Below, piece after piece: positions 2,965 to 64,000 of a DNA stretch of 64,000 nucleotides. The DNA is from an uncultured Verrucomicrobiae bacterium (GTDB lineage Bacteria; Verrucomicrobiota; Verrucomicrobiia; Chthoniobacterales; UBA10450): assembly GCA_963815455.1 (NCBI GenBank), contig CAWFGO010000003.1:384001-448000 (forward strand), in the 5' to 3' direction. The translations under genes and the position numbers were made by a program. Below the pieces are notes generated by a model. It did not search any database and was not told the DNA's origin. It saw only the letters and a program-made list of their open reading frames with translations. Position 1 is the stretch's first letter; the number at the start of each line of letters is the position of its first letter.

Positions 2965-3032
2965 AGTCGAGGAATCCCGCTCCGATGGCCCTGGCTCAGT
3001 CCACGGGATCCTTCGACCGCGCTCAGGATGAC
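2965..3032. repeat. GTCAT/ATGAC palindromic element, left end truncated
   Basis: AGTCGAGGAATCCCG...CGGGATCCTTCGACCGCGCTCAGGATGAC; same family as 59596-60045. Confidence 0.8.
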
Positions 3033-7443: not shown

Positions 7444-7621
7444 AAACGCGACAAGACGGATGTTTTTTTAACAGAAGATAACGAAAGTAACAAAGGGATC
7501 GTACATTCTTGGATCGCCGCCAAATAGAACTTCAGACACGGCGACCCATCCGACTGCCGCTCAGGGCAGGCTCCGCTGCCGTGGCTACATCTCGTCACTC
7601 GTCACACGTCACTCGTCACTG

Positions 7622-8293: not shown

Positions 8294-8407
8294 TTTCGAT
8301 TTTCAATTTTCGATTTTCGATTTGGCTCCGCGTCATTCGCTGTAGCCGCCTCGTCCGCCACCCGGACGGACTCGCCGTGGCGAGCTCTGTCGAGGCGCCC
8401 CTCCTGA

Positions 8408-8929: not shown

Positions 8930-9077
8930 GATTTAACAGAAGATAACAAAGTAAACGAAGGTATTTTCTCTATTCGGCCTCTGAAATCTCTGACTTCGGG
9001 TCTCCGAAATCTGGCCGGATCTTCGGTTTCCTTCTGTAAAACTCCCCGTGATCTCCGTGGTGAAAATCGACCGGCGA

Positions 9078-10316: not shown

Positions 10317-10398
10317 GAACCGCCGCGATTATCTCAGGCTGCCGCCCGTCGCGCGAGTAAAAACCGAACCGATCACCACGAAATCGGAGAGTTTTTTT

Positions 10399-10545
10399 AC
10401 AGAAGGCAACGAAGGAAACAAAGAATCCACAAGCGTCGGATCGGGACCCACAAACCTGCGTTCCCGCAGTCTGCTCTTCCTGTTTTCCTGCTTTCCTGAT
10501 TATTTCCGTCTCCCTCCTTCTTCGTTCCCTTCGTTTCCTTCTGTG
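10399..10545. repeat. Composite ACAGAAGG..CCTTCTGT repeat, copy 1
   Basis: 10399-10474 is identical to 11786-11861; ends are inverted nonamer-like arrays. Confidence 0.85.
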
Positions 10546-10638
10546 AAATAAATCCGAGTCATCCGCGTAATCCGCGGTTGGATTTGAGCGTTGGGCGTTT
10601 TCCCCAACTTCCCGCCACTGTCTCTTCGTTTCTTTCGG

Positions 10639-10884
10639 TTACGCGCCCGTTTCTGCCCCATTGCCCGCTTGATGGAGCCCGGTCATCGTCAGCAATGGCA
10701 GAACATCGAACGCCTCATCCGGATCATTTTTGTCAAACACGACAACATAAGCCGCCCGGGGCGGAAGCGCGATGTAATCCCGATGCGGCACCTCATATTG
10801 GTTCCCATCGGCCATCTTCAACACGAAGGGGAGATTGCGCTCGATGGCTTTCTCGATCTGGGAGCGTGTCACAGCAACGAACAT
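10639..10884 (-). CDS. Small hypothetical protein
   Basis: 81-aa ORF (PFVLKMADGNQYEVPHRD) between repeats. Confidence 0.6.
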   Translation of the reverse strand: MFVAVTRSQIEKAIERNLPFVLKMADGNQYEVPHRDYIALPPRAAYVVVFDKNDPDEAFDVLPLLTMTGLHQAGNGAETGA

Positions 10885-11062
10885 CGCAGAGCGCTTTTTT
10901 CATGTCAATTTTACCGTCGCTTGCATCGTAGTCTCGTAGTCCTGTGGTCAGTCGTCAGTCGTCAGTCGTCAGTAGTCCCTTCCTTCCTTGCCCCTTTGCT
11001 CTTCCCACTTCCCTTCCTTCGTTCCCTTAGTTTCCTTCTGTAAAAATCCCAATTCGCCTCGG

Positions 11063-11205
11063 TGTAGAGGCGGCCGTGCCGGCCGCTTCCGAAGAACGAA
11101 ACGGCGTCTGACACAGACGCCCTACAACAATGCAGCTCTTCTGCCTCTGATTTCTGCACGGCGATCCGTTCGACTGCTGCTCAGGGTAGGCTCCGCTGGC
11201 GCGGC
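11063..11205. repeat. Composite REP mosaic, near-duplicate of 14952-15098
   Basis: GTAGAGGCGGCCGTGCCGGCCGC..GGCGTCTGACACAGACGCCCTAC..TTCGACTGCTGCTCAGGGTAGGCT. Confidence 0.85.
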
Positions 11206-11370
11206 TTTTCGTTCCCGCAGCCTGCCGGCCGTGGCGGGTTTCCTTCTGTAAAAATCCCGCTTTTCTTCTGTAACAGGAGTTCGTCCAGTATAGGACGAAC
11301 TTGGCGCTAGAGAGGATATTGAGATTTCGCACTTTGCCTCTCTCACTGAATCAGCTAATATTCCTGGGTA

Positions 11371-11664
11371 ATGGTCAGCACGCTCAAGATCTACGACATC
11401 CTGGAGCAGGCGCAGATCGACGAGAAACACGCTCGCGCCATCACCGCCGCCATCGAGCGCGCACTGGACGAGAACAATCTCGATCAGGCGCGTGTCCTCG
11501 CGACGAAAGAGGATATCGCCAAATTGCGCGAGGAGTCGGCCAAATTGCGCGGCGAACTGATCGAGAAAATCGCCGATGCCAAGGTCGAGATCATTCGTTG
11601 GATGTTTATCTTCTGGATCGGCCTTATCCCCATCATCGCCGCGTTGATCAAGTTCATCCGCTGA
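11371..11664 (+). CDS. DUF1640/CCDC90-like coiled-coil protein with C-terminal TM
   Basis: TLKIYDILE...LATKEDI...KVEIIRWMFIFWIG pattern. Confidence 0.75.
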   Translation: MVSTLKIYDILEQAQIDEKHARAITAAIERALDENNLDQARVLATKEDIAKLREESAKLRGELIEKIADAKVEIIRWMFIFWIGLIPIIAALIKFIR

Positions 11665-11672
11665 CCCGAGCA

Positions 11673-11768
11673 TCACTGCTCAAGGAGAGAAACCAAATCG
11701 TTGAAACTAATGTTGTAGTCGGACCGGCCGGACAGTATCTGCTGCCACACTTTTTCGTGCTTCGACAC
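11673..11768 (-). pseudogene. Truncated HicA-like toxin fragment
   Basis: VSKHEKVWQQILSGRSDYNISFNDLVSLLEQ* resembles the N-terminus of HicA-family toxins; stops after 31 aa. Confidence 0.55.
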
Positions 11769-11785
11769 ACGGCAAAATCTTTTTA

Positions 11786-12035
11786 ACAGAAGGCAACGAA
11801 GGAAACAAAGAATCCACAAGCGTCGGATCGGGACCCACAAACCTGCGTTCCCGCAGTCTGCCCGGTCTGGTCGCCGCGCCTGTAGCCGCCTCGTCCGCCA
11901 CCGGACGGACTCGCCGTGGCGAGCTGTGTCGAGGCGTCCCCGGCCTCGCCTCAATCCTCTCCCCTCTTCCTGTTTTCCTGCTTTCCTGATTATTCCCGTC
12001 TCCCTCCTTCGTTCCTTAGTTTCCTTCTGTAAAAA
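11786..12035. repeat. Composite repeat copy 2, with a 103-bp REP-containing insertion
   Basis: Matches 10399-10545 except for the insert at 11862-11964. Confidence 0.85.
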
Positions 12036-12347
12036 TCCCTGCCTTTCTCCTGTAAAGCCCTTCGGTTCGCCCCCTGGCCACAAGCCGCAGGGCCCTGAGG
12101 CCCGGGGGGTTATTCACAACCCCACCGCTGGACGAGTTTACCCTGCATTCGATTACGAAGAATTGTGGGATTTTGATTGACTCTAAGGCCAAAAATTGGT
12201 GTGATATGCCCTGATTTTGTCGCCAAAAGGGTTAGGCACAAACGGACACCGATTTTACTTCATTTTTTGACCACGGATTACGCCGATTTACACGGAAACC
12301 ATTCGCCTGCCTTCACTGTGACCTCTGATCTGCCATCTGCCAAAGGA

Positions 12348-12545
12348 ATGATTCGCCACGCCGGGCCTCCGGGCGCGAAGCCCGACCCTTACGCGGCCGG
12401 CGCGCATCGGACTTTTGACGTGGTGCTCGTGGTCCTGACCGCGGTGTTGATGTTCATCGTGTTCCGCACCGGCGGAAAAACGCACGCTAACCAAAACGCC
12501 ACCGACACCGCTCGCCCGGCTCAATCTCAGCAAGTCTCCAAATAA
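12348..12545 (+). CDS. Small single-TM protein
   Basis: MIRHAG...VVLVVLTAVLMFIVFR; immediately upstream of the next gene. Confidence 0.5.
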   Translation: MIRHAGPPGAKPDPYAAGAHRTFDVVLVVLTAVLMFIVFRTGGKTHANQNATDTARPAQSQQVSK

Positions 12546-12548
12546 GCG

Positions 12549-14912
12549 ATGTCGTCCTCTACGAAACAATTTAGAAAACGAATCGCACTTTGCTGTGCGA
12601 TTGCGGCTTCGTTTTTGCCGGTAGCGAGTAATGCACAACCGGAGGATTCTCACCTGATTCAACTTGCCGTGCCCGCACCCGACGCCACTTTGGCGCTCAA
12701 TTTTGGAGAACCGATGGCAGGCCGCGGGGACGTGGACCGGGGCCAATTGGGGTGCTTCCTCTCCCAACTCGGGCGGCACGAGTTACACCGCCAATAATGA
12801 CGCGAGCTTCACGGCTAACTGGCGACTGTAACATTTGCGACGGTAATCCATCGGAAATGTGACATTGTCTAGCGGCATCACCGTCACGGTTTCTCAAGCA
12901 GGCACGATGAGCACCAATAACGTCAGTCCTGGACCTTCGACATTGGCACCGGTTCGTTGCTCACATGGACGACTCAAGGCGTTTCGAACAACAGCTCCTC
13001 GGGCTTCATCAAGAACGGCTTAGGAACATGGAATATCGGGGCACAACCCAACGCTTACACTGGTGGTTTTACGCTCAATGCTGGGACTGTGCATTGTCGA
13101 TCCGGAAACAATTCCTTCGAACGGCGGCCCAATCCTGCGAATCGACGGAGGAACCATCCAAACATGGTGGTGGACCCGGTGATTACATGCCAACTGCGTT
13201 ACGCTCGGCGGGAATTCGAAATTACAGGTACACGGAAACTCCACATTGGGCGGCGACAGTTGCCTTGGGGGCAGCTGTGCGCACGATAACAATCAGCCAA
13301 AGTCCGGTACCTATATTTTGGCGGAGTTATTTCGATGGCGGAGCGGGCGATTGGCGGCACTTGCTTTCGGCGACTGGGCACATGACGTTCTGACAGGCGC
13401 AAATACTTACACCGGCGGGACCACGGTAAACAGTGGAACGCTTGCGCTCGGCTCCAGCAGCACTGCAAGCGGCGGAGCGATTATAAACGGTCCGGTCGGT
13501 ACCGGCCTCTTGACTCTCAATGATGGTGCGGCGATACGCTCGAACGGCGCGACCGATCGAACCATCCTCAACAATGTAAGTTTGAGCGGAAACGTGACCT
13601 TGGGCAGTGCGACAAATGCCGGCGTGCTCAGATTCAACTCGGCTGGCCTGAGCGTGGCGTCTACCGTTACGCTGGCAGCCGATACCGTGCTGACGCTGAA
13701 TAGCGACGTGCGGATTGGCAACAAGATTACCGGCGTTGGGCAGGAGCCTCACCAAGATGGGTTCGGGTATGTTGGACCTCGACATCGCAAATGATTTTTC
13801 CGGAACGTTCACGGCAAGCGGAGGCGCAACGAATCTGAACGTCAATAACGCCCTGGGCTCGGTGACTTCCGTTGTGGTTAACAGTGGCGCGAACCTTTTT
13901 AGCATTGGGGACGGCTCGACGACGAATGTGATCAATGACGCCGCCGCCGTAACTATTAACGGAACTGGCAATATGGATCTGAGTGGCGGGAGCGAAACGG
14001 TCGGTTCGCTGGCCAGCTCGAGCTCCGACCGCGACGGTTGTCATCGGAGCGTTTGGCAGCAGTGCCGGCAGTTTCACCGTTGGCGACAGCTCCAATACCA
14101 CTTTTGCCGGAGTTATCAGCGGCGACCCGCTGGTAGCGGGAACCACCGTTTTCACCAAGCAAGGCGCCGGAACGCTCACCCTGTCCGGCGCGAATACTTA
14201 CACCGGCGCGACGGTGATCAACAACGGCACGCTTGCGCTTGACAATAACAACACCGCCACGCCGAGATTAGCGGGGACGACCAAGATTACGGTCAACAGC
14301 GGCGGCACGTTGCTGCTGGCCCAAAGCGGCGGCACATCCAGCAACGACCGGATTAACGACAGCGCGACCATAACGCTGAACGGCGGCAAGTTTAGCACCG
14401 GCGGGTTGAGCGAGTATTCGGGCAGCCTCGGGCCGTTACCCGGCAAGGGAAAAGGCCCGACCCCGACAAATGGACCCGTTCCTAAACCGATCGTCACCAA
14501 CGTTACCGCCGGGATTGGTGCGCTCACGCTTCAAGCGAGCTCGGTCATCGATCTGGGAAGCGGCAAAAGTATTCTGGCCTTTGCCAATAGCAGCAGCGCA
14601 ACCTGGACCTCGGGACAAGTCCTGAGCATCTGGAATTGGACGGGCAATCTCGCGGGAGGCGGTGCCGATCAGATCTATTTCGGAACGGATACGAGCGGTC
14701 TTAGCTCCGGGCAGCTGGCGCAGATCGAGTTCTTTAGCGGCGCCGGCACCGGCTCGTACGGTCTCGGTGTCGCAGCGCTTCTGGCCAACGGCGAGCTCGT
14801 GCCCATTCCCGAGCCGGGCACATGGATCGGCGGCGCGCTGGCTCTGGCCGCGGTTGGGTTCAGCCAACGGCGAAGATTCAAGCGCGCGGGCATTCGCGCT
14901 TCTGATTGCTGA
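12549..14912 (+). CDS. Autotransporter-associated beta-strand repeat protein with PEP-CTERM sorting signal (multiple frameshifts)
   Basis: Signal peptide; repeated LTGANTYTGGTTVNSGTL and KQGAGTLTLSGANTYTGATVIN; C-terminal VPIPEPGTWIGGALALAAVGFSQRRRFKR. Confidence 0.85.
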
Positions 14913-14951
14913 TTGCTGATTTCTGAATCAAATCCTTGTCAGTTTCATCCA

Positions 14952-15130
14952 GTGTAGAGGCGGCCGTGCCGGCCGCTTCCGAAGACGAGTTGGCGTCTGA
15001 CACAGACGCCCTACAAGTCATGTAGCGCCGCTGCCCTCTGATTTCTGCGCCGCGACCGATTCGACTGCCGCTCAGGGCAGGCTCGCTGCCCTGGCTACAA
15101 CTTGTCACTGGTCACTCGTCACTGGTCACT
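14952..15130. repeat. Composite REP mosaic plus GTCACT heptamer array
   Basis: Near-duplicate of 11063-11205; its tail also resembles 7535-7620. Confidence 0.85.
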
Positions 15131-15179
15131 TCTTCCATTCTCCCTTGTCACTTCGCCAGCCCGGCCTAGTTTCATTGAT

Positions 15180-15593
15180 ATGAAAATCGCAAAACTGCTT
15201 TTGATATTGCCCGCGGCCATTCTGGTGTCGGCGCCGGCATTCGCTCAGGACGACAAACCGATGGGTGGAGACAAGGGAATGAAAATGAAAGCCATGCATG
15301 AAGAGATGCAGGCCGAGATGAAAGCGATGGACGAACGGCTCGACAAATTAGTCGTCGACATGAACACCGCGGCCACGCCCGAGAAAAAACTTAATGCGGT
15401 GGTTGCCGTCGTGAACGAGATCGCGGCCCAGCACAAGAAAATGCACGGAAAAATGATGCACCGCTGGGAAGGCGGCCGTCGCCATCACGGTCCCGGCGCC
15501 GGAAAAGACGAAGACGAAAAGGCCGGGAACCGGACTACAGACTACGGGACCACTGACCACGGACAACTGACCATGGGCCCGGCGGGAAATTGA
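15180..15593 (+). CDS. Secreted Met/His-rich helical protein (possible metal binding)
   Basis: Signal peptide; GMKMKAMHEEM and HKKMHGKMMH. Confidence 0.65.
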   Translation: MKIAKLLLILPAAILVSAPAFAQDDKPMGGDKGMKMKAMHEEMQAEMKAMDERLDKLVVDMNTAATPEKKLNAVVAVVNEIAAQHKKMHGKMMHRWEGGRRHHGPGAGKDEDEKAGNRTTDYGTTDHGQLTMGPAGN

Positions 15594-15671
15594 CCGCGGA
15601 TTACGCGGATTTTCTTGATGCGGTCTGATGTAATAGCTGATAACAGATCACCGATCTGCGATTTCCGATCG

Positions 15672-16740
15672 TCGAACTGCACGGAAATTCCGCCGCGCAG
15701 ACGGTAATCGGGCACCGCTTGCAACGCGGTGTTGTCGATCGACACCGGAAGATCGACAGCGACCTCCGCGCTCCAGCGTCCCGCGCGAGGCCACGATCCG
15801 GGGCCCGACAAAAACGGAATCGATCCCGGTATCCTCGGCTTTCATCCCGCGAAACCGATCGACATCCTTGTGCTCGCCTGAAACCACGAATTGCAGACCG
15901 GCCACGGTGCCGCGATCGCGGACAAAATAATAACCCGGCCCGGCGCTCCAGGTGAGATCGTTGGCGAAATGATATTGGTGCGCCCCATCGCCGCGCAGGG
16001 TGAATTGCACGTTCGTCTCAAAAAACAGATTCCGATATCGCAGCGAGTTTTGCTCGCCGAACACGCCGTCGTAGGAACCGGTGCCGAGGGTGAGATCGTG
16101 CCCATGAATTCCGCTCTCGGGCGCGTTTATCGCGCCGAAGCCAGGCGAAGGCGGACCCGGAAGTTCCACTTCATGAAATTCTTCCTTAATTCGGCTGGAA
16201 TCGCCGGTTGGGAATTTCAATCCGGTCAGCAGCACTGACGACATCGTGAAGTCCGGCTCGTGCTCGATGGTCACGGGGTTCTTGCCTTCGAACTGCAACG
16301 ATTGCCGGGCCGAGCGACGAGTAGTGAAACAGAACGGTCTTGAGCAGGATCGACAGGTCGCCCAAACCCGCCACCGTGCCGCGATCAATGGCGAAGCCTT
16401 CCGGTCTTTTGAACTCGCGATAGATAATCGGGATATTGATCTGGAGCGCGAACCGGCTGGTCAGAGCGTAACCGGCCACGACCTGGGTGATCGAACTGTT
16501 CAAATATTGTCCGGTCGGATTGCCGACCTCGGCGCCGTCCAGTTGCAGGGTTCCGAATCGAGTGAACTGCTCGGCCACCGCGCCGTATAATCCCGGCGCC
16601 CACGGGATCAAATGCGCAGCCTCTAATTGCGACATGGCATTCAATTGCGGCGCGTAACAGCCGCACAGATCACAAGCCCGGGTGGTGACCGCGGCGCCCG
16701 CAAACAAACATAAAAGTAAAAGCAAACGTAAAATTTTCAT
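15672..16740 (-). CDS. Putative outer-membrane beta-barrel transporter with N-terminal CxxCxC (frameshifted; 3' end approximate)
   Basis: Signal peptide, CDLCGC, GLGDL, GLKFPTG, LGTGSYD, ending RGGISVQF; three ORFs join. Confidence 0.7.
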
Positions 16741-16848
16741 TGGTTCTCTGAAGATTGAGATTTAGAGGTCGGTGTGTCGCCCGCATTCAAAGAATGGGCC
16801 TTTGCAGTCGCCGCGGCGACCGCCGCTGGACTTCGGCAGCGAGCGATT

Positions 16849-16935
16849 GGTGGATCGAGCAGTCCCTTGGCCGATGTTAATTCAGGCGGCAAAGCCGCAT
16901 TATCTTACCATCGCCCGCGGAGCGGCCGATCCACC
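16849..16935. repeat. GGTGGATCG..CGATCCACC palindromic element (copies at 22939-23026 and 35037-35125)
   Basis: Three ~88-bp copies with shared inverted ends and internal hairpins. Confidence 0.8.
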
Positions 16936-16949
16936 TACAGAGCTGCAAG

Positions 16950-17327
16950 TTAGCTCATCAACCGTGGCGGAGGAACCGGCGGCGAATGCCCGGCGTGGGA
17001 AAACGAAAAATCGCGTGTCGCGTATTTGAAATCAACGAAAGAGGGCCTGAGCGAAACCGGGCGTGTCACACAAATGATATCGATTTTCGGAGTCGATGGC
17101 TGCAGATCCGATTTCTTCTCGGAATTCCTCCCCTTATTCACAATATGACAAATCGAGCAGGGATGATTGCCGTCAAAAGTCTGCGCGATCGCTTCCCGCA
17201 ACGGAGCGCGCTGGGCGTTTTGGATGAGCATGCTCGTCCAGGCGAGCGATTGCAGCGCGACCCAATGCAACCCAATCGCACAACAAAGTGCGACGATCGT
17301 GATGGCGCGGCCAATGCAGCGAAGCAC
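16950..17327 (-). CDS. DUF2946-like small protein (CxxC, C-terminal PPVPPPR)
   Basis: N-terminal hydrophobic segment, HPCSIC, Pro-rich C-terminus; upstream of the transporter. Confidence 0.7.
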   Translation of the reverse strand: MLRCIGRAITIVALCCAIGLHWVALQSLAWTSMLIQNAQRAPLREAIAQTFDGNHPCSICHIVNKGRNSEKKSDLQPSTPKIDIICVTRPVSLRPSFVDFKYATRDFSFSHAGHSPPVPPPRLMS

Positions 17328-17424
17328 GAGCCAAGGCTATTGAGGGACTGTCCGGTACGTCAAACCACCGAGGCCGGATCCAATCCAACCTCGGTGGTCA
17401 AAAATCTTCTGCGGCGTCGTCCGT

Positions 17425-18237
17425 TTAGAAGTGAAAGTTCAACCCCGCCCGAACAATGTGGCCGGTGGTCTCGCCGTCCAATCCGTATTTGACGGGGAAG
17501 ATTTTGCCACCCGGGATGCTTGGTCTGGCACGAGCGGCGTTACCAGCGGCGTTGTTAAATATATTGGCGTCGATCTCCGTGGATTGGTCCTCAAGCGAGA
17601 AATAGAGATACTCGAGCTTGATCGACCAGTGGCAGCCGAGCCTGCGCTCGATCCCGCCACCAACGGTATAGCCCCAATTAAAATCCTGCTTGTGAACGTC
17701 GAACACCTCGGGATCGGGTTCAAAGGTCGCACTGGTCTCGTAATTCACCCCGATGGCGCCACCCGTGGCGTAGAACAACCAGTTACAACCAGCCGCAACA
17801 CCAAGGCGTCCGCGAAAAGTCGCATAGAAATCGCTATCGCTTTCGGCCGGGAACCCGGAGTCATGGAACAAATGGCCGCTGCCATCCAGGTTCATGTAGC
17901 CGACATCGGATTCCGCTCCCAGAACCAGCCATCGCCACTGCCAGTTGTAACCGATTTGCCCGCCACCAACGAAGCCCGATTCCGAGTATCCAAAGGCATG
18001 AGAAAACTCGTCGCCGTTATTGGCAGTGGCTGTAAAATTGTCCTCGCTGTGACCAAACTGACCGCCAGCATGTAGTCCGAGGTAAAATCCGGTCCAATCG
18101 CAGCATGGCGGCGGCGGTGGCGGAATGACTTCTTTCATTTCCTTGCCACTCGCCATCGGTTCGGGACCGGCAAAAATAGTTAAGGCAAGCGCATTGCATG
18201 CGCAAACAGCGACGAACAGACGGGCTATGGATTTCAT
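17425..18237 (-). CDS. Outer-membrane beta-barrel (Omp25/RopB-like porin family)
   Basis: DWTGFYLGLHAG, GGGQIGYNWQ, WSIKLEYLY, terminal Phe. Confidence 0.85.
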   Translation of the reverse strand: MKSIARLFVAVCACNALALTIFAGPEPMASGKEMKEVIPPPPPPCCDWTGFYLGLHAGGQFGHSEDNFTATANNGDEFSHAFGYSESGFVGGGQIGYNWQWRWLVLGAESDVGYMNLDGSGHLFHDSGFPAESDSDFYATFRGRLGVAAGCNWLFYATGGAIGVNYETSATFEPDPEVFDVHKQDFNWGYTVGGGIERRLGCHWSIKLEYLYFSLEDQSTEIDANIFNNAAGNAARARPSIPGGKIFPVKYGLDGETTGHIVRAGLNFHF

Positions 18238-18564
18238 AAGGGCTATTTCTCAACAATACAGGCCAACCCGTCAAGCCCTAACATTTCCCGCGGGCGCTAT
18301 AATTTCCAGACAAGCAAGAGGCTCGCTTCCGTCGTCCCAAGCTGCCTCGGAGGGAAAATTTTTTACAGAAGATAACCCGCCACGGCCGGTAAACTGCGGG
18401 AACGAAGATCAGATTTCAGAGTTCAGGGGAATCGGCGTCTGACCCCGCCTTCGCCTTTGCTATGGCGGGCACGCAGACGCCTTAGAACTTTGATACATCC
18501 GCGTGATCAGCGGTCGATCACAGCGCTTCGTTTCCTTCTCCTTCTGTAAGAAATCGAGATTCGG

Positions 18565-19362
18565 CTAAAACCGGAAATTCAATCCACCGCGGATGATGTG
18601 CCCCTGGGTTTCGCCTTGGAATCGGAACCTGTCCGTGAGCCGCCCCTGCGGTGACCTTTGGTCAGGCCCCAGATTCATTCTCTCATTGTCGAGACCGCTG
18701 AAGGACTGTTCGTCGAGAGTGAACCAGAGGTATTCCAGTTTGATCGACCAATGCCGGCCGAGCTGGCGCTCGATCCCGCCACCCACGGTGGGGCCCCAGT
18801 TGAAATCCTGCCTGGAAGCCTCGACGCCGCCGCCGATCTCCTCCTGGGCGACAAACCGGGTGTCGTAATTCACACCAATGACCCCGGCGGTGGCATAGAG
18901 CAACCAGCACCCATGCCAATCCAGCGCGTAACCGATTCGTCCCCGCAGAGTCAGATAGAAATCGCTGTCGGTTTCACCATGGGCCACACCCGGGGGACCA
19001 AGAGACTGGGGCTCTTCCCCGCGGCCATCCAGATTCATATAACCGAGATCCAGTTCGGGCCCGAGCACGATCCGGCCGAATTGAAAATTGTAGCCCACCT
19101 GGCCCCCGCCGACGAAACCCGACTCGCTGTAACCGAAATGATGGTGGGCAAAGAAATAATACTCATCGAGATCGTTCGTCTGGCTGTGGCCAAACTGGCC
19201 CCCGGCATGCAGACCGATGTAAATCCCCGACCAGTCGCAAGCCGGAGGCGGTGGCGGCGGCGCAACTTCCTTGGACGGGATCGGCTGGGGACCGGCGGTG
19301 ACGATCGCTACCAGTCCAGTGCACGCGAACAAAGTGATGAGAAAACGGCTCAGGGCGTTCAT
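18565..19362 (-). CDS. Outer-membrane beta-barrel paralog
   Basis: DWSGIYIGLHAG, GGGQVGYNFQ, WSIKLEYLW, terminal Phe. Confidence 0.85.
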   Translation of the reverse strand: MNALSRFLITLFACTGLVAIVTAGPQPIPSKEVAPPPPPPACDWSGIYIGLHAGGQFGHSQTNDLDEYYFFAHHHFGYSESGFVGGGQVGYNFQFGRIVLGPELDLGYMNLDGRGEEPQSLGPPGVAHGETDSDFYLTLRGRIGYALDWHGCWLLYATAGVIGVNYDTRFVAQEEIGGGVEASRQDFNWGPTVGGGIERQLGRHWSIKLEYLWFTLDEQSFSGLDNERMNLGPDQRSPQGRLTDRFRFQGETQGHIIRGGLNFRF

Positions 19363-19533
19363 GCCGCCATGTTCTTCAAAACGTCCCCTGGGCGCAAGCT
19401 CTTTGTTAACGGCCGTCCCACTGTAGAGTCCGCTGTCCTCAGCGGACTGTTGTCGTGGCATCGGCTTCCAGCCGATGTCGATGGGCTCGCCAGGGCGAGT
19501 CTGTCCGTTGGCGGACAAGATGCCAATGGCACT

Positions 19534-21087
19534 TTAATGCGGCACGAAGCTGCCGCTTCCTTCGTCCAGATACGTTGTCGATCCCACGCGTGAGATCTTG
19601 AGCGTTTGCCGCCACTTCCCCGAAGGAAATTCCCGCCCGGCGTCGATCGTCGTCGTTTCCGCTTTCAATTGCCCGAGGCTGCTTCCACTCATTGCTTCGG
19701 ACAAAATCCGGCCATCCAATTGCCTGGGCAGGGCAATCCCGAGTATGCGCAGAATCGTCGGGGCAAGATCGACATTGCCACTTGGTAAATCGTCCGCCTG
19801 CCCGCGCTGAAAATCCGGGCCGGCGGCGATGAGTGTGTTGTGCATGTCGAACCGGCCAAGCGTGGCGTGTGTCCCCTTCCCCGCTCTGCGCTGCCAATCG
19901 GCATCGATCATTCCGGGCACTCCGAATTGATTCTTCCTTTCGTTCCAACGAAAACTCATCACCACGTCCGGCACCTGTTCGCCAGCGATCCCGGCCTGCT
20001 CGCAACCGAACGTGCCGTCCATCGGTGTTTTTGTAAAAATGACTCCGGCGAAATCCGATTGCTGCAAAGTTTCGACCAGCCGGCTCGTAATCGCCGGGTC
20101 GTGTTTCATTACATAGAACAAAACTGTGCCGCCGTTTCCAACGAGCATGATCTGGCCGGGCTTGGGCTCCGCCGCAAATTCGGTCACGGCATCAAATCCG
20201 GCGTCTTTCAAAATTTTCCGAAGATCGACTGACCGCTCGATCGTGGAAAAACCGTGATCGGAGACAACGAAAATGTCGGTGGTCGATGTTGCCTGATGCC
20301 GATCGAGCGCAGCCAGGACGCGACCGAGGTTTGTGTCGCTCGCTTTCATCGCCGCGATGGCCTCTTTGGAACCGGGAGCCGTCTTGTGTTCGGTGTCATC
20401 CGGCTCGCTCAACCACAACAGCGAAAATGCCGGCACTTGATCGCGCCAGAGAAAATCGGTCAACGCTTTCGTGGTCCATGCGTCGCGATCGGCCGCTGCT
20501 CTGGCCGACGGAAACGGGCCAAGCCCAGCCACCATCGGCGCCAGCGCGGTGGACGAAAAAGATTGACCGCCGAAAAGGGTCAGGCCGTTTTGATCGACAT
20601 GTCGATCCTGCAACAGCCCAATGCCCTTGGCCGCCGCGATCGCGGTGTGACGGCCGGCCTTTCGCACAAGTTCGGTGATCGTCGGCACCGCCACGTAATT
20701 GCCGCCAGAAAGTTCGTCGCCCTTCTGAATAACTCGCGAATTTTCGGTGTCGATCGCTTTCCGGCTGTCAATCTCCGGCCGGTATTCGTGATTGGCGATG
20801 ATGCCGTTGCGTCCCGGATAAACGCCAGTGGCCATCGCGACACCATTAACCTCGGTCGAGGATGGATAGGTCGCGTGATGATTGCGAAACACCACGCCCG
20901 CTTTCGCCAGTTTCCAAAGCGCCGGGGTGTTTTCCTCGGTCACGAAATCGGGACGCATGCCGTCCCACACGATCAACACGACATGCCGATCCGGTTTGGC
21001 TGCATCCGCAGCGACTGCGACCGTCTGCGCACAAGAAACCAGCGCCGCCACCAGACAGAATGTGCGATATTGGCGAACCATTTTCAT
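19534..21087 (-). CDS. Alkaline phosphatase superfamily (nucleotide pyrophosphatase/phosphodiesterase)
   Basis: WDGMRPD, YPSSTEVN, EPDDTEH, VSDHGF, NVDLAPT. Confidence 0.85.
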   Translation of the reverse strand: MKMVRQYRTFCLVAALVSCAQTVAVAADAAKPDRHVVLIVWDGMRPDFVTEENTPALWKLAKAGVVFRNHHATYPSSTEVNGVAMATGVYPGRNGIIANHEYRPEIDSRKAIDTENSRVIQKGDELSGGNYVAVPTITELVRKAGRHTAIAAAKGIGLLQDRHVDQNGLTLFGGQSFSSTALAPMVAGLGPFPSARAAADRDAWTTKALTDFLWRDQVPAFSLLWLSEPDDTEHKTAPGSKEAIAAMKASDTNLGRVLAALDRHQATSTTDIFVVSDHGFSTIERSVDLRKILKDAGFDAVTEFAAEPKPGQIMLVGNGGTVLFYVMKHDPAITSRLVETLQQSDFAGVIFTKTPMDGTFGCEQAGIAGEQVPDVVMSFRWNERKNQFGVPGMIDADWQRRAGKGTHATLGRFDMHNTLIAAGPDFQRGQADDLPSGNVDLAPTILRILGIALPRQLDGRILSEAMSGSSLGQLKAETTTIDAGREFPSGKWRQTLKISRVGSTTYLDEGSGSFVPH

Positions 21088-22141
21088 GAGCGTCCGCAGA
21101 TTACGCAGATTTTCGCAGATTGGTAGGAACCTCATTCCAAACGTCTTGCTTGCCTTTCTATTGGGCGTCGCGTCCATCGCCGCCGGCGCGCTCATTCCCA
21201 TCCGGGAGGGCACGACCTGGCAATACAACATGACCCAGGAAGTGGGCGAAGGAATCAAGGTGCCCAACGCCAAGCCTGATGCCGACGGGAAAATCCGGGT
21301 ACCGGTCACTTATCACATTGCCGGCACGCAGAAAGTTGACGGGAAAAATCTCATCGAGTTCGAGATGCATCGTGACGGCGTGGTGACCAACACCGATCTC
21401 GTGACTGTGGACGGTCACGGAATTATTTGCTGGGGAAAAATTAATCTCGAAGGCGAGCTGATCGAGATCGATCCGCCCCAGACGATGATCGCGGCGCCGC
21501 TCAAGCCGGGCGCGACCTGGAATTTCGAGAGCCAGGTGGCCAATCTGAAAGTTAATCAGCGTTACGATGTGGCCGGGCTGGAAGATGTCGATGTTCCCGC
21601 GGGAAAATTTCACGCTTTCCGGATTCATTGCGAGCAGACATCGCCCAGCGCGACGACAATCGATCGCTGGTTTGTTCCCGGAATTGGAATCGTCAAAGAC
21701 GTCACCACGATGCGATCGAAAGAGGGCGATATTCTTCAACGCATCTCGCTTGAATTGAAGGAACGGCCCAGGATCGACAAGCGACCGGAGGTCAAGCCAA
21801 CCGAGCCGCCAAAAAAACTTTCAGCCACGCTGGCGACCGAGCCCGCGGGCGAACCCGCCGTCGAATTCTCAACCGATGCGCCGATGATTTATGCGCGCTG
21901 GGAAGGACGGCGTTTGCGCGAACACGCCAGGATCCGCGTGGTCTGGATCGCCGAGAAGGTGGAAGATATCCCGGCTAATTACAAAGTGGACGAAGCATCG
22001 GCCGTGGCCGACGGCAAATATTCGCATGGGCATTTTGTTCTTTCCCGGCCCGGCGATGGCTGGGAACCGGGCGATTATCGGGCCGAGTTTTATGTCGATG
22101 ATGAATTGCAGGAAACGGTAAAGTTGAGGATCACAAAATAG
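21086..22141 (+). CDS. Secreted hypothetical protein (start uncertain)
   Basis: Signal-like segment; VDVPAGKF and WFVPGIGIVK motifs of exported beta-rich proteins. Confidence 0.65.
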   Translation: MSVRRLRRFSQIGRNLIPNVLLAFLLGVASIAAGALIPIREGTTWQYNMTQEVGEGIKVPNAKPDADGKIRVPVTYHIAGTQKVDGKNLIEFEMHRDGVVTNTDLVTVDGHGIICWGKINLEGELIEIDPPQTMIAAPLKPGATWNFESQVANLKVNQRYDVAGLEDVDVPAGKFHAFRIHCEQTSPSATTIDRWFVPGIGIVKDVTTMRSKEGDILQRISLELKERPRIDKRPEVKPTEPPKKLSATLATEPAGEPAVEFSTDAPMIYARWEGRRLREHARIRVVWIAEKVEDIPANYKVDEASAVADGKYSHGHFVLSRPGDGWEPGDYRAEFYVDDELQETVKLRITK

Positions 22142-22270
22142 ACACGGTGTAGTGGCGGGCGTGTCGCCCGCAGTGGTGCGGCCGACACGGCCGCCTCTAC
22201 AACAGCACGATTTTCTTGAATCCAAACCGGCCATCAGCAGCATCCTATTAACAAAGGCGACATTTTCCCC

Positions 22271-27447: not shown

Positions 27448-27569
27448 GTCATCCTGAACCGCGGAGACGGTGAAGGATCTCCTGTCGCCGAAAAGCACGG
27501 AAGTTGCCTAGTAACGGGACCGACAGAACAATCGCGAGATCCCTCGTCGTCTCCGCGACTCGGGATGAC
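27448..27569. repeat. GTCAT/ATGAC palindromic element (gene-less)
   Basis: GTCATCCTGAACC..GAAGGATCTC ... GAGATCCCTCGTC..CTCGGGATGAC. Confidence 0.85.
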
Positions 27570-45534: not shown

Positions 45535-45666
45535 GTCATCCCGAGCGCAGCGAGGGACCTCCCAGTCGAAGCGATAGCGGGCAAGCCATCCTGCAAGCGC
45601 GGCCGCATCGTCACCCGCGAGCGCTCCCCTTCTACTCGCGGGGTCCTTCGCTTCGCTCAGGATGAC
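45535..45666. repeat. GTCAT/ATGAC palindromic element (gene-less)
   Basis: GTCATCCCGAGCGCAGCGAGGGACCTC ... GGGGTCCTTCGCTTCGCTCAGGATGAC. Confidence 0.88.
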
Positions 45667-49998: not shown

Positions 49999-50075
49999 GT
50001 CATCCCGAGCGGAGCGAGGGACCTCTCAAGCTAAGTCGGACATTCGAGAGATGTTTCGCTTCCGCTCAACATGAC
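49999..50075. repeat. GTCAT/ATGAC palindromic element (gene-less) between gyrB and gyrA
   Basis: GTCATCCCGAGCGGAGCGAGGGACCTCTC ... GAGAGATGTTTCGCTTCCGCTCAACATGAC. Confidence 0.85.
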
Positions 50076-58607: not shown

Positions 58608-59594
58608 ATGAAATCGACTCAGGAAATCACGCACGAAGTGCAACAACTGGGCCAATGGATCCCGGCGCTACGCGAACAGGTCGGGCACGTAGTCATCGGA
58701 CAGAAGTATCTGGTCGATCGGCTCTTGCTTGGTTTGCTGGCTAATGGCCACATCCTGCTCGAAGGCGTTCCCGGATTGGCCAAGACCCTGGCCGTCAAAA
58801 CCATGGCGGGCTGTATTCAGACCGGCTTTCAGCGACTGCAATTCACCCCCGATCTTTTGCCGGCCGATTTGATCGGCACTCTCATCTACAATCCGCGTAC
58901 CGGCGAGTTCACGACCAAGATGGGCCCGATTTTTTCGAACCTGATCCTGGCCGATGAAATCAATCGCGCACCTGCCAAAGTACAAAGCGCGCTACTGGAA
59001 GCGATGCAGGAACGGCAAATCACGATCGGCGAAAAAACGTATCCCCTCCCCGATCCGTTCCTGGTTCTCGCTACCCAGAACCCCATCGAACAGGAAGGAA
59101 CCTACCAGCTGCCGGAAGCTCAACTCGACCGTTTCATGCTGAAGCTAAATGTCGGTTATCCTGGGAAGCCGGAAGAGCGTCGCATCCTCGACTTGATGGC
59201 CACGTCCGCGCCGGACTTGCGGGTCAACCCGGTGATCGAACCGAAACAGATCATCGCCGCCCGCGACATCGTAAACCAGATCTACATCGACGACCGCGTA
59301 AAGGATTACATTGTCGATGTTGTCTGGGCGACCCGTGAGCCGGCGTCGTTCAATTTGCAACTGGAAGGTCTGATTCGTTACGGCGCGTCGCCTCGGGCAA
59401 CTATTTATCTCGCGCTCGGCGCGCGGGCCAATGCATTCGTTAACGGCCGCGGCTACGTCACGCCGCAGGACGTGAAGAGCATCGGCCCGGACGTTTTGCG
59501 GCATCGAATCATCGTCAGCTACGAAGCGGAAGCCGAAGCGGTAACGAGCGAGACGATCATTGAGAGGATTTTCGCGGGATTGCCGGTGCCCTAG
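58608..59594 (+). CDS. MoxR family AAA ATPase
   Basis: EGVPGLAKT, FTPDLLP, ADEINRAP, ATQNPIEQEGTY. Confidence 0.95.
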   Translation: MKSTQEITHEVQQLGQWIPALREQVGHVVIGQKYLVDRLLLGLLANGHILLEGVPGLAKTLAVKTMAGCIQTGFQRLQFTPDLLPADLIGTLIYNPRTGEFTTKMGPIFSNLILADEINRAPAKVQSALLEAMQERQITIGEKTYPLPDPFLVLATQNPIEQEGTYQLPEAQLDRFMLKLNVGYPGKPEERRILDLMATSAPDLRVNPVIEPKQIIAARDIVNQIYIDDRVKDYIVDVVWATREPASFNLQLEGLIRYGASPRATIYLALGARANAFVNGRGYVTPQDVKSIGPDVLRHRIIVSYEAEAEAVTSETIIERIFAGLPVP

Positions 59595-59595
59595 G

Positions 59596-60045
59596 GTCAT
59601 CCCGAGCGCTCGCCGCGCCGTAGCGCAGCGGAGGCGGGAAGTCGAGGGATCCCGTGGTGCAACCGAGAAGCTAGGAATGAAAGTCGCAAAATTACTTCGT
59701 TTATATATTAACTAATGGGGATCGCCATACCGTGCTCTACATTGGCGTTACCAACGATCTCGAACGCCGCGGCAGCGAACATTCATTAGAATTCGGGAGC
59801 GCATTTGCGAGGCAATACAACGCGCACAAGCTCATCTATTTCGAAGCTCATCCCGATCCGACGAGTGCAATTGCACGCGAGAAACAACTGAAAGGCTGGA
59901 GTCGCGTTAAGAAGGAGGCATTGATTTCACAGGCAAATCCGGCCTGGAAGGATCTGTTTGACGAGATGTACGCACTTCGGCCAATCGGAGGTTCCCGGTA
60001 ATGCTACGGGATCCCTCGACTTCGCTGCGCGCGGCTCGGGATGAC
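59596..60045. mobile_element. Inverted-repeat element carrying a GIY-YIG nuclease gene
   Basis: Left arm GTCATCCCGAGC..AAGTCGAGGGATCCCGT; right arm ACGGGATCCCTCGACTT..GCTCGGGATGAC. Confidence 0.7.
59677..60001 (+). CDS. Small GIY-YIG nuclease (one extra base near the start)
   Basis: NYFVYILTN...VLYIGVTNDLERR..EH, LIYFE, AIAREKQLKGWSR.KK..LI...NP.W.DL. Confidence 0.9.
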
Positions 60046-60939
60046 GAGCAGGCAGAAACCACCGCCGGCATCCTGAAAAAGATCAGAACGCTGGAACTCA
60101 AGACCCGCGGCCTGGTCGAAACCGCTTTCGCAGGCGATTACCACAGCGTCTTCAAAGGACGCGGGATGAATTTTGAAGATGTGCGCGAATATCAGCCGGG
60201 GGACGAGATTCGCGCGATCGATTGGAACGTGACCGCGCGCCTCGGCACGGCCTTCGTGAAGCAATTCACCGAAGAACGCGAGCTGACCGTGATGCTGATT
60301 GTCGATGTGAGCGCTTCGGGAAATTTCGGCAGCACCACGCAATCGAAGCGCGAGCTTGCCGCGGAAGTGGCCTGCCTGCTCGCTTTCAGCGCGATCCGAA
60401 ACAACGACAAGGTCGGCCTGCTCTTGTTTACCGATCGGGTCGAGCTTTTCATTCCGCCGAAAAAAGGACGGTCGCACACGTTGCGGGTGATTCGCGAGAT
60501 CTTGTTCTTCACGCCGCAAGGCCGCGGGACCGAGCCGGCGCTGGCGCTCGATTATCTAAACAAGATCGTTACACGGCGCGCGGTCGTGTTTTTTATTTCC
60601 GATTTTCAGGCGCCCGATTTTTCAAAAGCGCTGGCGGTGAGCGCGCGACGCCACGATTTCATCGCGGTCCATATTCACGACGAGCGGGAAAAGGTGCTGC
60701 CGAATATTGGGATCATCACACTGGAAGACGCAGAGACCGGCGAACAAATCGAAATTAACACGGCCGATCGCGCGACCCGGGCGCGATTTGCCCAGGAGGC
60801 CGAAGATCAAGAGGCCGAGCTTGCCCACACACTTCGCCGAAACCGTATCGACTCGATCGCGCTGCGGACCGGACAGGATTACTTGCCCGCGCTGCGCACA
60901 TTTTTCAAACAGCGCGAGCACCGCCTGGCAATTCGCTAA
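60001..60939 (+). CDS. DUF58 domain protein
   Basis: FKGRGMNFEDVREYQPGDEIRAIDWNVTAR, DVSAS, FISDF. Confidence 0.93.
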   Translation: MLRDPSTSLRAARDDEQAETTAGILKKIRTLELKTRGLVETAFAGDYHSVFKGRGMNFEDVREYQPGDEIRAIDWNVTARLGTAFVKQFTEERELTVMLIVDVSASGNFGSTTQSKRELAAEVACLLAFSAIRNNDKVGLLLFTDRVELFIPPKKGRSHTLRVIREILFFTPQGRGTEPALALDYLNKIVTRRAVVFFISDFQAPDFSKALAVSARRHDFIAVHIHDEREKVLPNIGIITLEDAETGEQIEINTADRATRARFAQEAEDQEAELAHTLRRNRIDSIALRTGQDYLPALRTFFKQREHRLAIR

Positions 60940-61456: not shown

Positions 61457-62498
61457 TTGGTGGCCGGCGAACAGCGCGCTGACCTTCGCTCGCCCGTGGC
61501 TGCTCTTATTGCTGCTGGCAATTCCGCTGCTGGCCTGGTTGCGCGGCAAACGCGGGCCGGCAGCGGCGCTTGACCTTTTCCTCGACCGCCACCCTTCACG
61601 CGATCGGTAAACGAAGTCAGGCCCGGGCGGGAAAAATTCTGCGGACATTGTTACTGGCAACGCTGGCGATTTTCGTCATTGCGCTGGCGCGTCCGCAGCT
61701 CGGCAAAAGTCTCACCCAGGTCGAAGCCAGCGGGATCGACATCATGCTCGTGCTCGATGTTTCGGGATCGATGCTGACGAAGGATTTCACGATCGGCGGC
61801 GAGCTGGCGACGCGAGTGGATGCGATCCGCGAAGTGACGCGCAAATTCATCGAAGGCCGGCCCAACGATCGCATCGGAATCATTGCCTTCGCCGGGCGCC
61901 CCTATGTCGTAAGCCCGATGACGCTGGATCACGATTGGCTTGTGCAAAATCTGGACCGGGTGCGCATCGGATTGGTCGAAGACGGCACCGCCATTGGTTC
62001 GGCGATGGCGGCGGCAGCGAATCGTTTGAACGACAAACAATCAAAGAGCCGCGTCATCGTGCTGCTTAACCGATGGTGAAAACAATGCCGGCAAAATCCC
62101 GCCCAACACGGCGGCGGAAGCGGTAAAGGCGTTAAAGATTCATTTTTATGCGATTGGCGCCGGGACCAACGGCCTGGCCCTGGCGCCGGTATTTACGCCG
62201 CGCGGTCCGCTGACCGATCCGTTCGGCAACCTTGTTTACGAAAGACAGCGCGGTTCAATTCAACGAGACCGGCTTGAAAGAAGTCGCGAAGATCGCCGAT
62301 GGAAAATTTTTCCGCGCGACCGATACCAAATCGCTCGAACAAATTTATGACGACATCGACAAGATGGAAAAAACGACCATCAACGTGAAGAAATATCAGG
62401 AGTATCGCGACTTGTTTCCGCTCTGTCTCATGAGCGGTCTCGGCTTACTGGTTGCGCAGATTTTGTTGTCGCAAACGATTTGGAAGAAATTGCCGTGA
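61437..62498 (+). CDS. BatA-like VWA domain protein (frameshifted)
   Basis: LTFARPWLL, ALARPQ, MIDAS DVSGSM, DGTAIG, FFRATD. Confidence 0.88.
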
Positions 62499-62509
62499 AT
62501 CGCCTCATT

Positions 62510-62601
62510 GTCATTCCGAGCGAAGCGAAGCGAAGTCGAGGAATCCCGCGACCGAACCGAAGGACTATTCTACGGGATCCCTCGACTTCGCTCGGGATGA
62601 C
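62510..62601. repeat. GTCAT/ATGAC palindromic element (gene-less); closest match to the GIY-YIG element arms
   Basis: GTCATTCCGAGCGAAG..AAGTCGAGGAATCCCG ... CTACGGGATCCCTCGACTTCGCTCGGGATGAC. Confidence 0.9.
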
Positions 62602-62613
62602 CGGAATTACATT

Positions 62614-64000
62614 ATGAGCTTTGGCGCACCACAATGGTTCTGGGGATTGCTTCTGATCCCTGTGCTGATCGCGTTGTTCGTTCGCGCGGAACATCGCGCA
62701 GCCGAGCGTTTGCGGGAATTCGTTTCCGCGCGTTTGCTTCCGCAGCTTGCCGGCACGGTGAATCGCCCGCGGCGCGTGCTGCGGTTCGCTCTGCAGCTTC
62801 TCGGTCTGGCGTTCGTCGTCTTGAGCCTGGCTCAGCCGCGATGGGGCTACACTTTTGAAGATGTAAAACGCAAAGGCCTCGACCTGCTGATCGCGGTGGA
62901 TACATCGCGCAGCATGCTGTCGAACGATGTTGCGCCAAACCGCCTCGAACGCGTCAAACTGGCCGCCCATGATTTGATCGACGAACTGCAGGGCGATCGC
63001 GTGGGGTTGATTGCTTTTGCCGGTCGCGCCTTTTTGCAAGCGCCGCTTACGATCGATTACGGTGCGGCCACGGAATCGATCAACGATCTCGATACAAAAA
63101 CGATTCCGGAAGGCGGGACAAACATTTCCGAAGCGATCACGCTGGCCACCACGACCTTCGGCAAAAGCGCGATGGGAAATCGGGCGCTGATCATTTTTAC
63201 CGATGGCGAGGAGTTGAGTGGCGATGCCGTTAAAAGCGCGAAGGCCGCCGCCGACGCCGGAGTGCGCATTTTCACCGTGGGCGTGGGCACGCCGCAAGGC
63301 TCGCTCATTCCGCTCGCCAGCGACGATGGCGGGTCCGCATTCGTAAAGGATTCCGCGGGCCAGGTCGTGAAGTCGAAGCTGGACGAAAAAGTTTTGGATG
63401 AGATCGCGAAAGCCGCCGGCGGATTTTATCTGCACCTGGAAAACGGTCCGCGCACGATGCAACAATTTACTCGGACGGGCTGGCAAAAATGACGGCGGCC
63501 GAGATCGACGCGCGTTTGTCGAGAAAACCGATCGAACGCTACGAATGGCCTCTCGGAGCGGCGCTTGCCGCTCTCGCCTTGTCGATCCTAATTGGCGAAC
63601 GCAAACGCGTGCGCGCGCCGGCTCCGATTTCCGCGCCAGTCAGAATCGCCGCAGCGGCAACCATGATCGCAGCGTTTTCCCAGTTCGCTTCCGGCGCGGC
63701 CCCGGGCCTCGACGCTTATGAGAACGGCAAGTTCAACGACGCTTACAATGCCTTTCAAGAAACGTTAAAAACGCATCCTCAATCGCATGCCAAGGATGAG
63801 TTGCAATTCGACTCCGGCGCTGCCGCTTACAAGATGAAAGATTACGGCAAGGCGCTCGAGTTGTTCAGCCAGGCGTTGCTTTCGCCCGATGCCGGTTTGC
63901 AGAGCAAGAGCCATTACAATCTCGGGAACACGCTTTACCAGCGCGGCGAAGAACAGAAAGCGGAACAGAAGAAACTGGGCGACTGGACGAACGCCCTCGC
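62614..64000 (+). CDS. BatB-like VWA + TPR protein (frameshift ~63465; runs off the window end)
   Basis: LAQPRWG, DTSRSM, APLTIDY, TDGE, then TPR HYNLGNTLY. Confidence 0.88.

Follow-up and report, generated by a model that had tools for sequence, protein, structure and literature searches.

An Ssn-family GIY-YIG nuclease gene lies in a hairpin-repeat cassette whose full, gene-less and empty alleles alternate at three gene junctions

In the 64,000-nucleotide stretch of DNA from an uncultured Verrucomicrobiae bacterium that we analysed (the window), a small GIY-YIG nuclease gene is enclosed by two inverted, GTC-tagged hairpin arms between moxR and the DUF58 gene. Judged by homology, this gene is a member of the Ssn family of single-stranded-DNA (ssDNA) nucleases. 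Comparison of loci from relatives shows full, gene-less and empty alleles of the cassette alternating at three gene junctions, and each nuclease subclade goes with an arm subtype of its own.

The Ssn family was described in 2025, and the accessible text of that paper presents SsnA as a 94-aa single-domain GIY-YIG protein that acts on ssDNA only, cuts a few nucleotides upstream of a CGTC-tagged hairpin and modulates natural transformation in Neisseria (PMC11893778). According to the same text, the enzymes tested came from Neisseria and Wolbachia, hairpin motifs lie on both sides of 42% of Ssn homologues, and the NTS-ssnA-NTS layout was likened to an insertion sequence as a hypothesis, mobility not being demonstrated (PMC11893778). 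The family, its ssDNA cleavage activity and the mobility hypothesis are already in print, and an earlier note on this DNA, which knew of no established enzyme for such repeats, was mistaken on this point, as Ssn and its sequence-specific ssDNA cleavage beside hairpins are published (PMC11893778, in its accessible part).

In pairwise comparison the window protein matches P0007 (46% identity, 87/94 aa, E 7e-26), and the catalytic Y6, Y17 and E64 of P0007 all align with it. P0007 is a 94-aa cluster member labelled N. meningitidis that we equate with SsnA by label, length and residues rather than by accession (CAX49033.1); it was reached from Neisseria genomes found through the published motif and the NTS-flanked 94-aa proteins encoded there. 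A search of a Neisseria viridiae genome gave a match at E 3e-19, and the window protein lies within the published limits for Ssn homology (E<1e-10, >75% of SsnA length). Its open frame of 106 aa holds one Pfam domain and stays below 150 aa, most relatives having 100-110 aa, and 28 of 33 clade members show all three catalytic motifs; of the five that do not, one is truncated at a contig end. GTC-tagged hairpins stand on both sides of the window ssn gene. In a tree of 102 columns with long outgroup branches and an unsure root, the window protein groups with three NTS-flanked proteins against four other GIY-YIG rows (SH-aLRT 91). The likeness to the system of the Ssn paper, as far as its accessible text goes, comprises the small single-domain GIY-YIG protein, the Y6/Y17/E64 residues, the GTC-tagged hairpins on both sides and the hundreds of dispersed copies (PMC11893778). 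An NCBIfam search with the window nuclease returned no match, and the sole match among solved structures was the UPF0213 protein 1ZG2 (E 1.5e-6). Across a phylum sample of 81 genomes, matches at E<=1e-12 came only from the window's own family, which is a loose first look and not a statement of absence.

The earlier note had placed a GIY-YIG gene between inverted arms just past the moxR stop, and both arms are indeed found there (Table 1): the unit runs from the GTCAT that begins at 59596, 1 nt past that stop, to the ATGAC that ends at 60045, the enclosed frame (59681-60001) matches the Pfam GIY-YIG domain PF01541 (E 1e-14), and the flanking genes are AAA_3/MoxR, DUF58 and VWA/BatA by Pfam. The left arm is made up of the GTC tag, a 5-bp stem (59599-59603 with 59646-59650), a GA/GA inset (59604-59605/59644-59645), a long and variable apical part and a CCCG tail; the right arm, on the plus strand and in frame within the DUF58 ORF, reads RDPSTSLRAARDD.

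Table 1. Positions in the window of the cassette, its host genes and the gene-less copies of its arms.
Feature	Position	Strand	Remarks
moxR (AAA_3 ATPase), upstream host gene	58608..59594	+	stop 59592-59594
left arm, subtype A	59596..59654	+	from sequence; stem covariation over genome copies
left inner flank	59655..59664	+	consensus in cassettes matches left half of the 23-25-nt gene-less dimer spacer
ssn gene, single-domain GIY-YIG, ~107 aa in relatives	59677..60001	+	
right inner flank with TAATG overlap	59997..60006	+	ssn stop 59999-60001, predicted DUF58 start 60001-60003
DUF58/VWA host gene	60001..60939	+	first 15 predicted codons cassette-derived
right arm, subtype A	60007..60045	-	GTCAT reads from 60045 on the minus strand
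predicted 40-codon bridging ORF over the batA-batB dimer	62495..62617	+	GTGA overlaps batA stop, ATGA overlaps batB start
gene-less subtype A dimer between batA and batB	62510..62601		11 nt past batA stop
subtype A dimer, left arm truncated	2965..3032		
subtype B dimer	27448..27569		3 nt past stop of a PF01042 ORF
subtype B dimer	45535..45666		4 nt past stop of a long frame without Pfam match
subtype B arm and divergent arm	49999..50075		17 nt past gyrB stop

Full-length relatives have an in-frame start (M-x-x-Q-N-Y/H), but the ATG at 59677 is shifted by one base relative to the open nuclease frame, so that ssn is broken in this assembly. The break is either an assembly error or real damage, and an artefact is plausible because the assembly is indel-prone, with 14 of 82 tested loci frameshifted, and because the neighbouring batA and batB are broken too; the ssn break is of the +1 type, like 15 of the 21 assembly breaks (the other 6 being -1). 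Between 60939 and 63492 of the window, frameshifts affect batA, batB and the gene that follows DUF58; the assembly averages about one break per 1,500 codons. The genome's second Ssn-like gene (C2:522229-522477) is interrupted as well.

All five gene-less copies that the earlier note described as bearing the same arms are present in the window, but only two of them (2965-3032 and 62510-62601) are of subtype A, the others being of subtype B or mixed. Those at 27448, 45535 and 49999 begin 3, 4 and 17 nt past the stop of a long upstream frame, and the one at 62510 begins 11 nt past the batA stop. Genome-wide, the 12-nt arm core occurs 341 times, against 5, 5 and 6 times in three first-order Markov genomes, and 164 of the 290 typed arms form 82 outward-facing dimers, only 3 pairs facing the opposite way. 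The proposal that 62510-62601 is the element minus its gene can be extended to the whole genome, as the arms of 54 out of 55 subtype A dimers are separated by 23-25 nt and the two halves of this spacer match the inner flanks of the cassette (match score 4.3 vs -19.9, SD 1.1). Since the inner flanks are partly palindromic, this match leaves the direction, gene lost or gained, unfixed. The 54 spacers are diverse and include a single identical pair, so that a recent burst is not favoured. Target-site duplications sought around the 82 dimers (k=4-6) numbered no more than in shuffles, leaving none to report, and extended inverted repeats around the dimers were not found. Many arms lie 4-15 nt past stop codons. 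The window also holds many other small dispersed repeat families (D1, D6, D7, D9, D12, D18 and others), some of them GTAG-like; example spans are 7465-12052, 7591-15130, 10550-37234, 11062-22201 and 3996-38435.

Arms follow a common order of GTC, 5-bp stem, GA, an apex that is either short and GNA-capped or longer, GA, the stem's other side and a tail, and the GA/GA inset presumably forms sheared pairs. Without any pairing being imposed, the most variable stem position is paired in 92 of 95 subtype A arms (41.5 on average after shuffling) and in 115 of 125 subtype B arms (63.1 after shuffling). The two arms of one dimer share a core in only 2 of 41 dimers (9.6 expected), and hence the conserved structure is each arm's own local hairpin, a perfect long palindrome being avoided. 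A long arm-to-arm cruciform was rejected as a candidate structure, the arms of dimers matching each other less than by chance and the spacers being no more self-complementary than shuffled partners. ViennaRNA, which leaves GA/GA pairs unscored, gave no useful fold of the arms. In contrast to the repeats of the Ssn paper, the window arms fail the SRM pattern as given in its accessible text (PMC11893778): the pattern has 0 matches in the window, 0 among 12 close homologues and 20 sites genome-wide against 16, 21 and 30 by chance. The arms escape it through the GA/GA inset, which takes the place of a central pair, and through the variable apex.

Across the family, the nuclease and the repeats go together. 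Among 201 family genomes, 134 have an Ssn match at E<=1e-8, with up to 6 matches per genome, and 35 carry the window's close clade. The median number of arm cores per Mb is 54.7 in clade carriers (n=35), 28.1 with other Ssn genes (n=89), 14.0 with weak matches (n=10) and 10.7 with none (n=67), and arm-core density follows nuclease presence within genera, as the earlier note had anticipated for repeat counts (within-genus permutation, 0/5000). Subtype A arms have medians of 63 in the 35 carriers, 2 in genomes with other Ssn genes only (n=90) and 1 in those with none or weak matches (n=76), one borderline genome shifting group between the arm-core and subtype A counts. By within-genus permutation, subtype A is associated with the clade (0/5000) and other Ssn genes have no effect on it (1022/5000); these other genes raise the number of non-A arms (0/5000). 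Clade carriers are richer in non-A arms too, so a general tendency to hold repeats contributes. At least 20 subtype A arms are found in 23 of 166 non-carriers, and fewer than 20 in 4 of 35 carriers. The subtype A median is 24 in genomes that keep only an arm scar at moxR and 1 in those with a short junction, as a decay of counts after loss would predict. Four genomes (G185, G174, G081 and G115) hold 55-166 subtype A arms, the 166 being in G185, and have no Ssn match at E<=1e-8; recent loss, an assembly gap or another driver may account for them. Unpublished genomes (G008, G148, G168 and G216) are rows in the 201-genome counts, and no conclusion hinges on them.

That homologues should be preferentially flanked by such arms was a further expectation of the earlier note, and it was borne out: among 63 other Ssn genes of the family (32 flank clusters, from 60 regions, the top of 150 matches listed), a left arm is present in 58 and a right arm in 35, with 32 having both, and all 12 close metagenomic homologues are arm-flanked. 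Arm type likewise follows the nuclease phylogeny, since only 4 changes among subtypes A, B and C are needed on a protein tree of 102 columns with 79 typed and 14 untyped rows. The pattern that defines the subtypes was picked once the arms had been viewed, and kin are not independent.

The window's ssn clade occupies two more junctions: in G169 it lies at gmk-coaBC, and contigs L443 and L444/L445 have it at batD-batE, the four gene names having been assigned by reading translations. At gmk-coaBC, the full cassette of G169 can be set beside nine same-genus genomes, of which five have a subtype A dimer, two other repeats and two none. At batD-batE, metagenome contigs L443 and L445 carry the full cassette, and 29 genomes divide into 9 with a subtype A dimer, 1 with a single arm, 11 with unrelated repeats and 8 with none; allele classes at both junctions were assigned by eye. 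At each of these junctions the simpler reading is a single entry of the gene into a pre-existing dimer, with repeated loss as the alternative. G169 differs from its sisters in the 10-15 bases that border the arms on the outside. Comparison of three G229 sites with five sister species revealed no clean empty/filled pairs, the differences looking like sequence replacements, and no near-identical multi-copy cassettes were seen. The relatives available to such comparisons were species with roughly 90-96% gene identity.

At moxR-DUF58 itself, where 29 of the 30 best genomic matches (moxR and/or DUF58) and 9 of 12 close metagenomic matches reside, automatic classification of 149 family junctions returned 68 short, 24 four-helix-bundle, 23 ssn, 12 dimer, 9 arm and 11 other junctions and 2 without data. 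One of the last two holds ssn, which brings intact or partial ssn to 24 of 149, and the 68 short junctions are the empty sites that the earlier note had suggested looking for in relatives. Inspection by eye identified four internal ssn deletions with both arms (L229, L234, L282 and L303) and ten loci with the right arm only. Junction states interleave among relatives, ssn (G197) standing beside four-helix (G128) at 92% moxR identity. For 31 complete loci (8 partial loci were dropped), the ssn medians are pS 0.82 and pN 0.16, and the ssn tree keeps genus g10 whole (100/97), as does the flank tree. The moxR cassette is an old, selected resident that is mostly inherited vertically and has repeatedly been lost or displaced. 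A freshly inserted, freely hopping element does not accord with the near-constant junction, the saturated synonymous sites and the missing target duplication; recent lateral transfer of the window copy was not supported either, and an apparent conflict at G000 in a FastTree tree was gone under IQ-TREE. Unpublished genomes G003 (one ssn allele) and G015 (one short allele) entered the junction tallies and trees, and no conclusion hinges on them.

The four-helix-bundle gene (TIGR02436) sits in this junction in 24 of 149 genomes (L003, L004, L009 and 21 more loci), with inverted 7-nt repeat arrays and in two sequence types, and looks like a second repeat-flanked cassette system. In L304 (G127) a truncated ssn and a right arm are nested in four-helix-type heptamer repeats, suggesting that one cassette overwrote the other.

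Arms also enter the reading frames of the operon. In 29 of 32 genomes the DUF58 frame begins at a start codon that overlaps the ssn stop and continues through the right arm, and lone-arm scars stay in frame in 10 of 10; as reading frames, these show the right arm encoding the predicted DUF58 N-terminus, coupled to the ssn stop. At batA-batB, 23 of 25 inserts longer than 10 nt yield an ORF overlapping the stop of the gene before it and the start of the gene after it (window 62495-62617, L376-L405), a count to be read against a chance of one in three for the right length and against inserts that are not all independent and belong to several unrelated repeat families. At batD-batE (L535-L563), 19 of 21 inserts have a length that preserves the frame, and repeat dimers from several families precede the predicted batE signal peptide in frame. 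Bridging mini-ORFs as a genome-wide rule were rejected, with only 6 bridges and 2 fusions in 57 dimers that have a downstream ORF (by crude ORF calls), and moxR-to-ssn bridging, at 9 of 31, is no rule either. The predicted frame fit is local to DUF58, batA-batB and batD-batE, not genome-wide.

In RAYT/REP/REPIN systems, a mostly single-copy, long-resident gene is flanked by its own repeats, gene-less dimers are many and ssDNA hairpins are recognised. The Ssn cassette has the same gene-repeat layout, but the window enzyme is a GIY-YIG protein (PF01541 only) instead of an HUH/Y1 enzyme and the tag is GTC instead of GTAG. Rickettsia palindromic elements (RPE) are palindromic repeats inserted in frame in coding sequence; palindromic repeats are likewise in frame in host ORFs here, at the DUF58 and batE N-termini, but the predicted start codon then comes from the repeat and is coupled to the stop of the nuclease or of the gene upstream, and the parental nuclease cassette has been retained. 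Classical insertion sequences and MITEs come with target-site duplications and clean empty sites, neither of which was found here in the 82 dimers and at the three G229 sites. A free-standing GIY-YIG homing endonuclease cuts the cassette-less allele of its own site; here the gene-less dimers bear the cassette's arms, so that target discrimination is not evident from the sequence.

The CGTC REP families 1-4, in the available text of Di Nocera et al. 2013 (PMC3733652), share with the window arms the (C/T)GTC tag, AT at the stem base and a short tail, and are mostly head-to-head dimers with a preference for heterodimers and a location near gene 3' ends. Compared by text, these REPs have an 8-9-bp stem and a 4-5-nt loop, whereas the window arms have a 5-bp stem, a GA/GA inset and a 2-bp GNA-capped apex; RPE-4 and RPE-6 are equated with CGTC repeats in the same text (PMC3733652). 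The Ssn paper had already likened the repeat-ssn-repeat layout to insertion sequences and REP-associated transposases, and its accessible text reports no allele-level mobility evidence, subtype-specific counts or coding arms (PMC11893778). A full-text literature search that covered few subscription papers found neither the GA-inset arm type nor the subtype-specific association, three-state alleles or coding arms, and nothing beyond PMC11893778 and PMC3733652 on Ssn mobility or REP-bridging ORFs; for the arm 12-mers, the 20 of 41 matches that were listed were all unrelated by title.

On balance we lean, by a modest measure, towards a mechanism in which the enzyme nicks ssDNA just outside its cognate hairpins, whereupon recombinational repair spreads the arms and sometimes moves the gene from one gene-less copy to another. 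The sequence itself shows the family identity, the anatomy of the arms and the covariation of their stems. By analogy with four characterised homologues, the enzyme would bind ssDNA hairpins and cleave a few nucleotides 5' of the GTC tag, and in the cassette layout the predicted cuts would fall outside the element and on opposite strands. Comparison among genomes shows a subtype to be abundant mainly where its nuclease clade is or recently was. Gene-less dimers would arise by loss of the gene from a cassette, the gene may re-enter dimers by arm-to-arm recombination, and new copies would be replacements and not clean insertions. Going by the reading frames, the cassette may be tolerated in the operon as the supplier of a DUF58 start that is coupled to its own stop. 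The earlier note's central idea, that a GIY-YIG enzyme propagates its own palindromes, is retained in part: arm flanking, subtype match and counts agree with it, fresh hopping does not, and enzymatic propagation is a step that we infer. Counting against this mechanism, unrelated repeats and the four-helix-bundle cassette occur in the same junctions, so turnover may be site- or host-driven.

The gene might instead be a domesticated host nuclease that cuts incoming or recombining ssDNA at repeats and modulates transformation, the repeats being retained targets and not made by the enzyme. Such a function was demonstrated for SsnA in Neisseria, according to the accessible text (PMC11893778), and long residence in a core operon under purifying selection (the pN and pS medians above) would fit it; the count correlation is compatible as well. 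The genome has comEC-like and dprA-like genes, but these families are present in 10-11 of 14 control genomes and are weak evidence. We regard this account as unlikely, though worth serious attention, since ssn is patchy and often decaying, with many deletion scars, and the full cassette at three junctions is left unexplained; it and the nick-and-repair mechanism can hold together. A more improbable possibility is that a RAYT/HUH transposase or host recombination spreads all repeats while ssn rides along, the arms serving as autoregulatory, RNA or translation elements. Mobilisation of CGTC repeats by RAYTs or other transposases was raised by Di Nocera et al. 2013 (PMC3733652, available text), at least 5 unrelated repeat types occur at batA-batB and several at batD-batE (classed by eye), and the position of many arms just past stop codons would suit such a role. 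What speaks against mere passage is that subtype A tracks only the window clade and not other Ssn genes, and that arm subtype changes with protein clade. Least probable, and in our view very unlikely, is a classical insertion sequence with MITE derivatives, in which Ssn would be a stand-alone transposase excising the unit and inserting it at new targets: the layout is IS-like, the gene-less units are of constant length, and the flank clusters of other-clade Ssn genes and the multiple matches per genome could be read in this way, but target duplications, clean empty sites and near-identical multi-copy cassettes were not seen in the comparisons above, and the locus is near-fixed for the clade. 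To our knowledge, moreover, GIY-YIG enzymes are hydrolases with no known strand-transfer step.

The nick-and-repair mechanism bears on how CGTC-type REPs multiply, a question that dates from 2013, and on the mobility that the accessible text of the 2025 Ssn paper puts forward as a hypothesis (PMC11893778). A broader and more tentative proposal, which we consider possible but somewhat doubtful, is that the CGTC REP superfamily owes its mobility to Ssn proteins, which would be its missing mobilising enzymes. In this non-HUH system, driven by GIY-YIG nucleases, every subclade would generate its own hairpin subtype, use nick-stimulated arm-to-arm recombination to home into gene-less dimers of its own, and survive in translationally coupled operons by giving start codons and new N-terminal peptides to host genes. 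Matched alleles at three junctions and three nuclease/arm subtype pairs provide defined substrates and specificity tests, and in-frame arms, as reading frames, would offer a route from repeat DNA to protein N-termini.

GA-inset arms also flank Planktothrix, Spirosoma and 27 other distant homologues, that is 29 of 70 against 8 of 70 with the published SRM, among the best 80 of 582 confirmed metagenome stretches and 2 plasmid loci. Because the published pattern misses such arms, the number of Ssn-repeat pairs is probably underestimated; the de novo motif logo of the Ssn paper, as far as its accessible text goes, might include this arm type (PMC11893778). Each Ssn-repeat pair is a candidate new sequence-specific ssDNA cutter. 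The Planktothrix plasmid NZ_LR882964.1 (L521) carries a GA-arm Ssn cassette that has an MmeI-type restriction-modification gene on one side and DISARM drmA on the other. In the Sphingobium genome G239 (L212-L214), inverted repeats of a different type, which have GAGC..GTCGA cores and lack the GTCAT tag, flank more distant GIY-YIG genes (35-38% identity), hinting at repeat pairing beyond the Ssn clade. In many other Ssn clades (L316-L375), the nuclease ORF enters the right arm and stops at the TGA of the ATGAC end.
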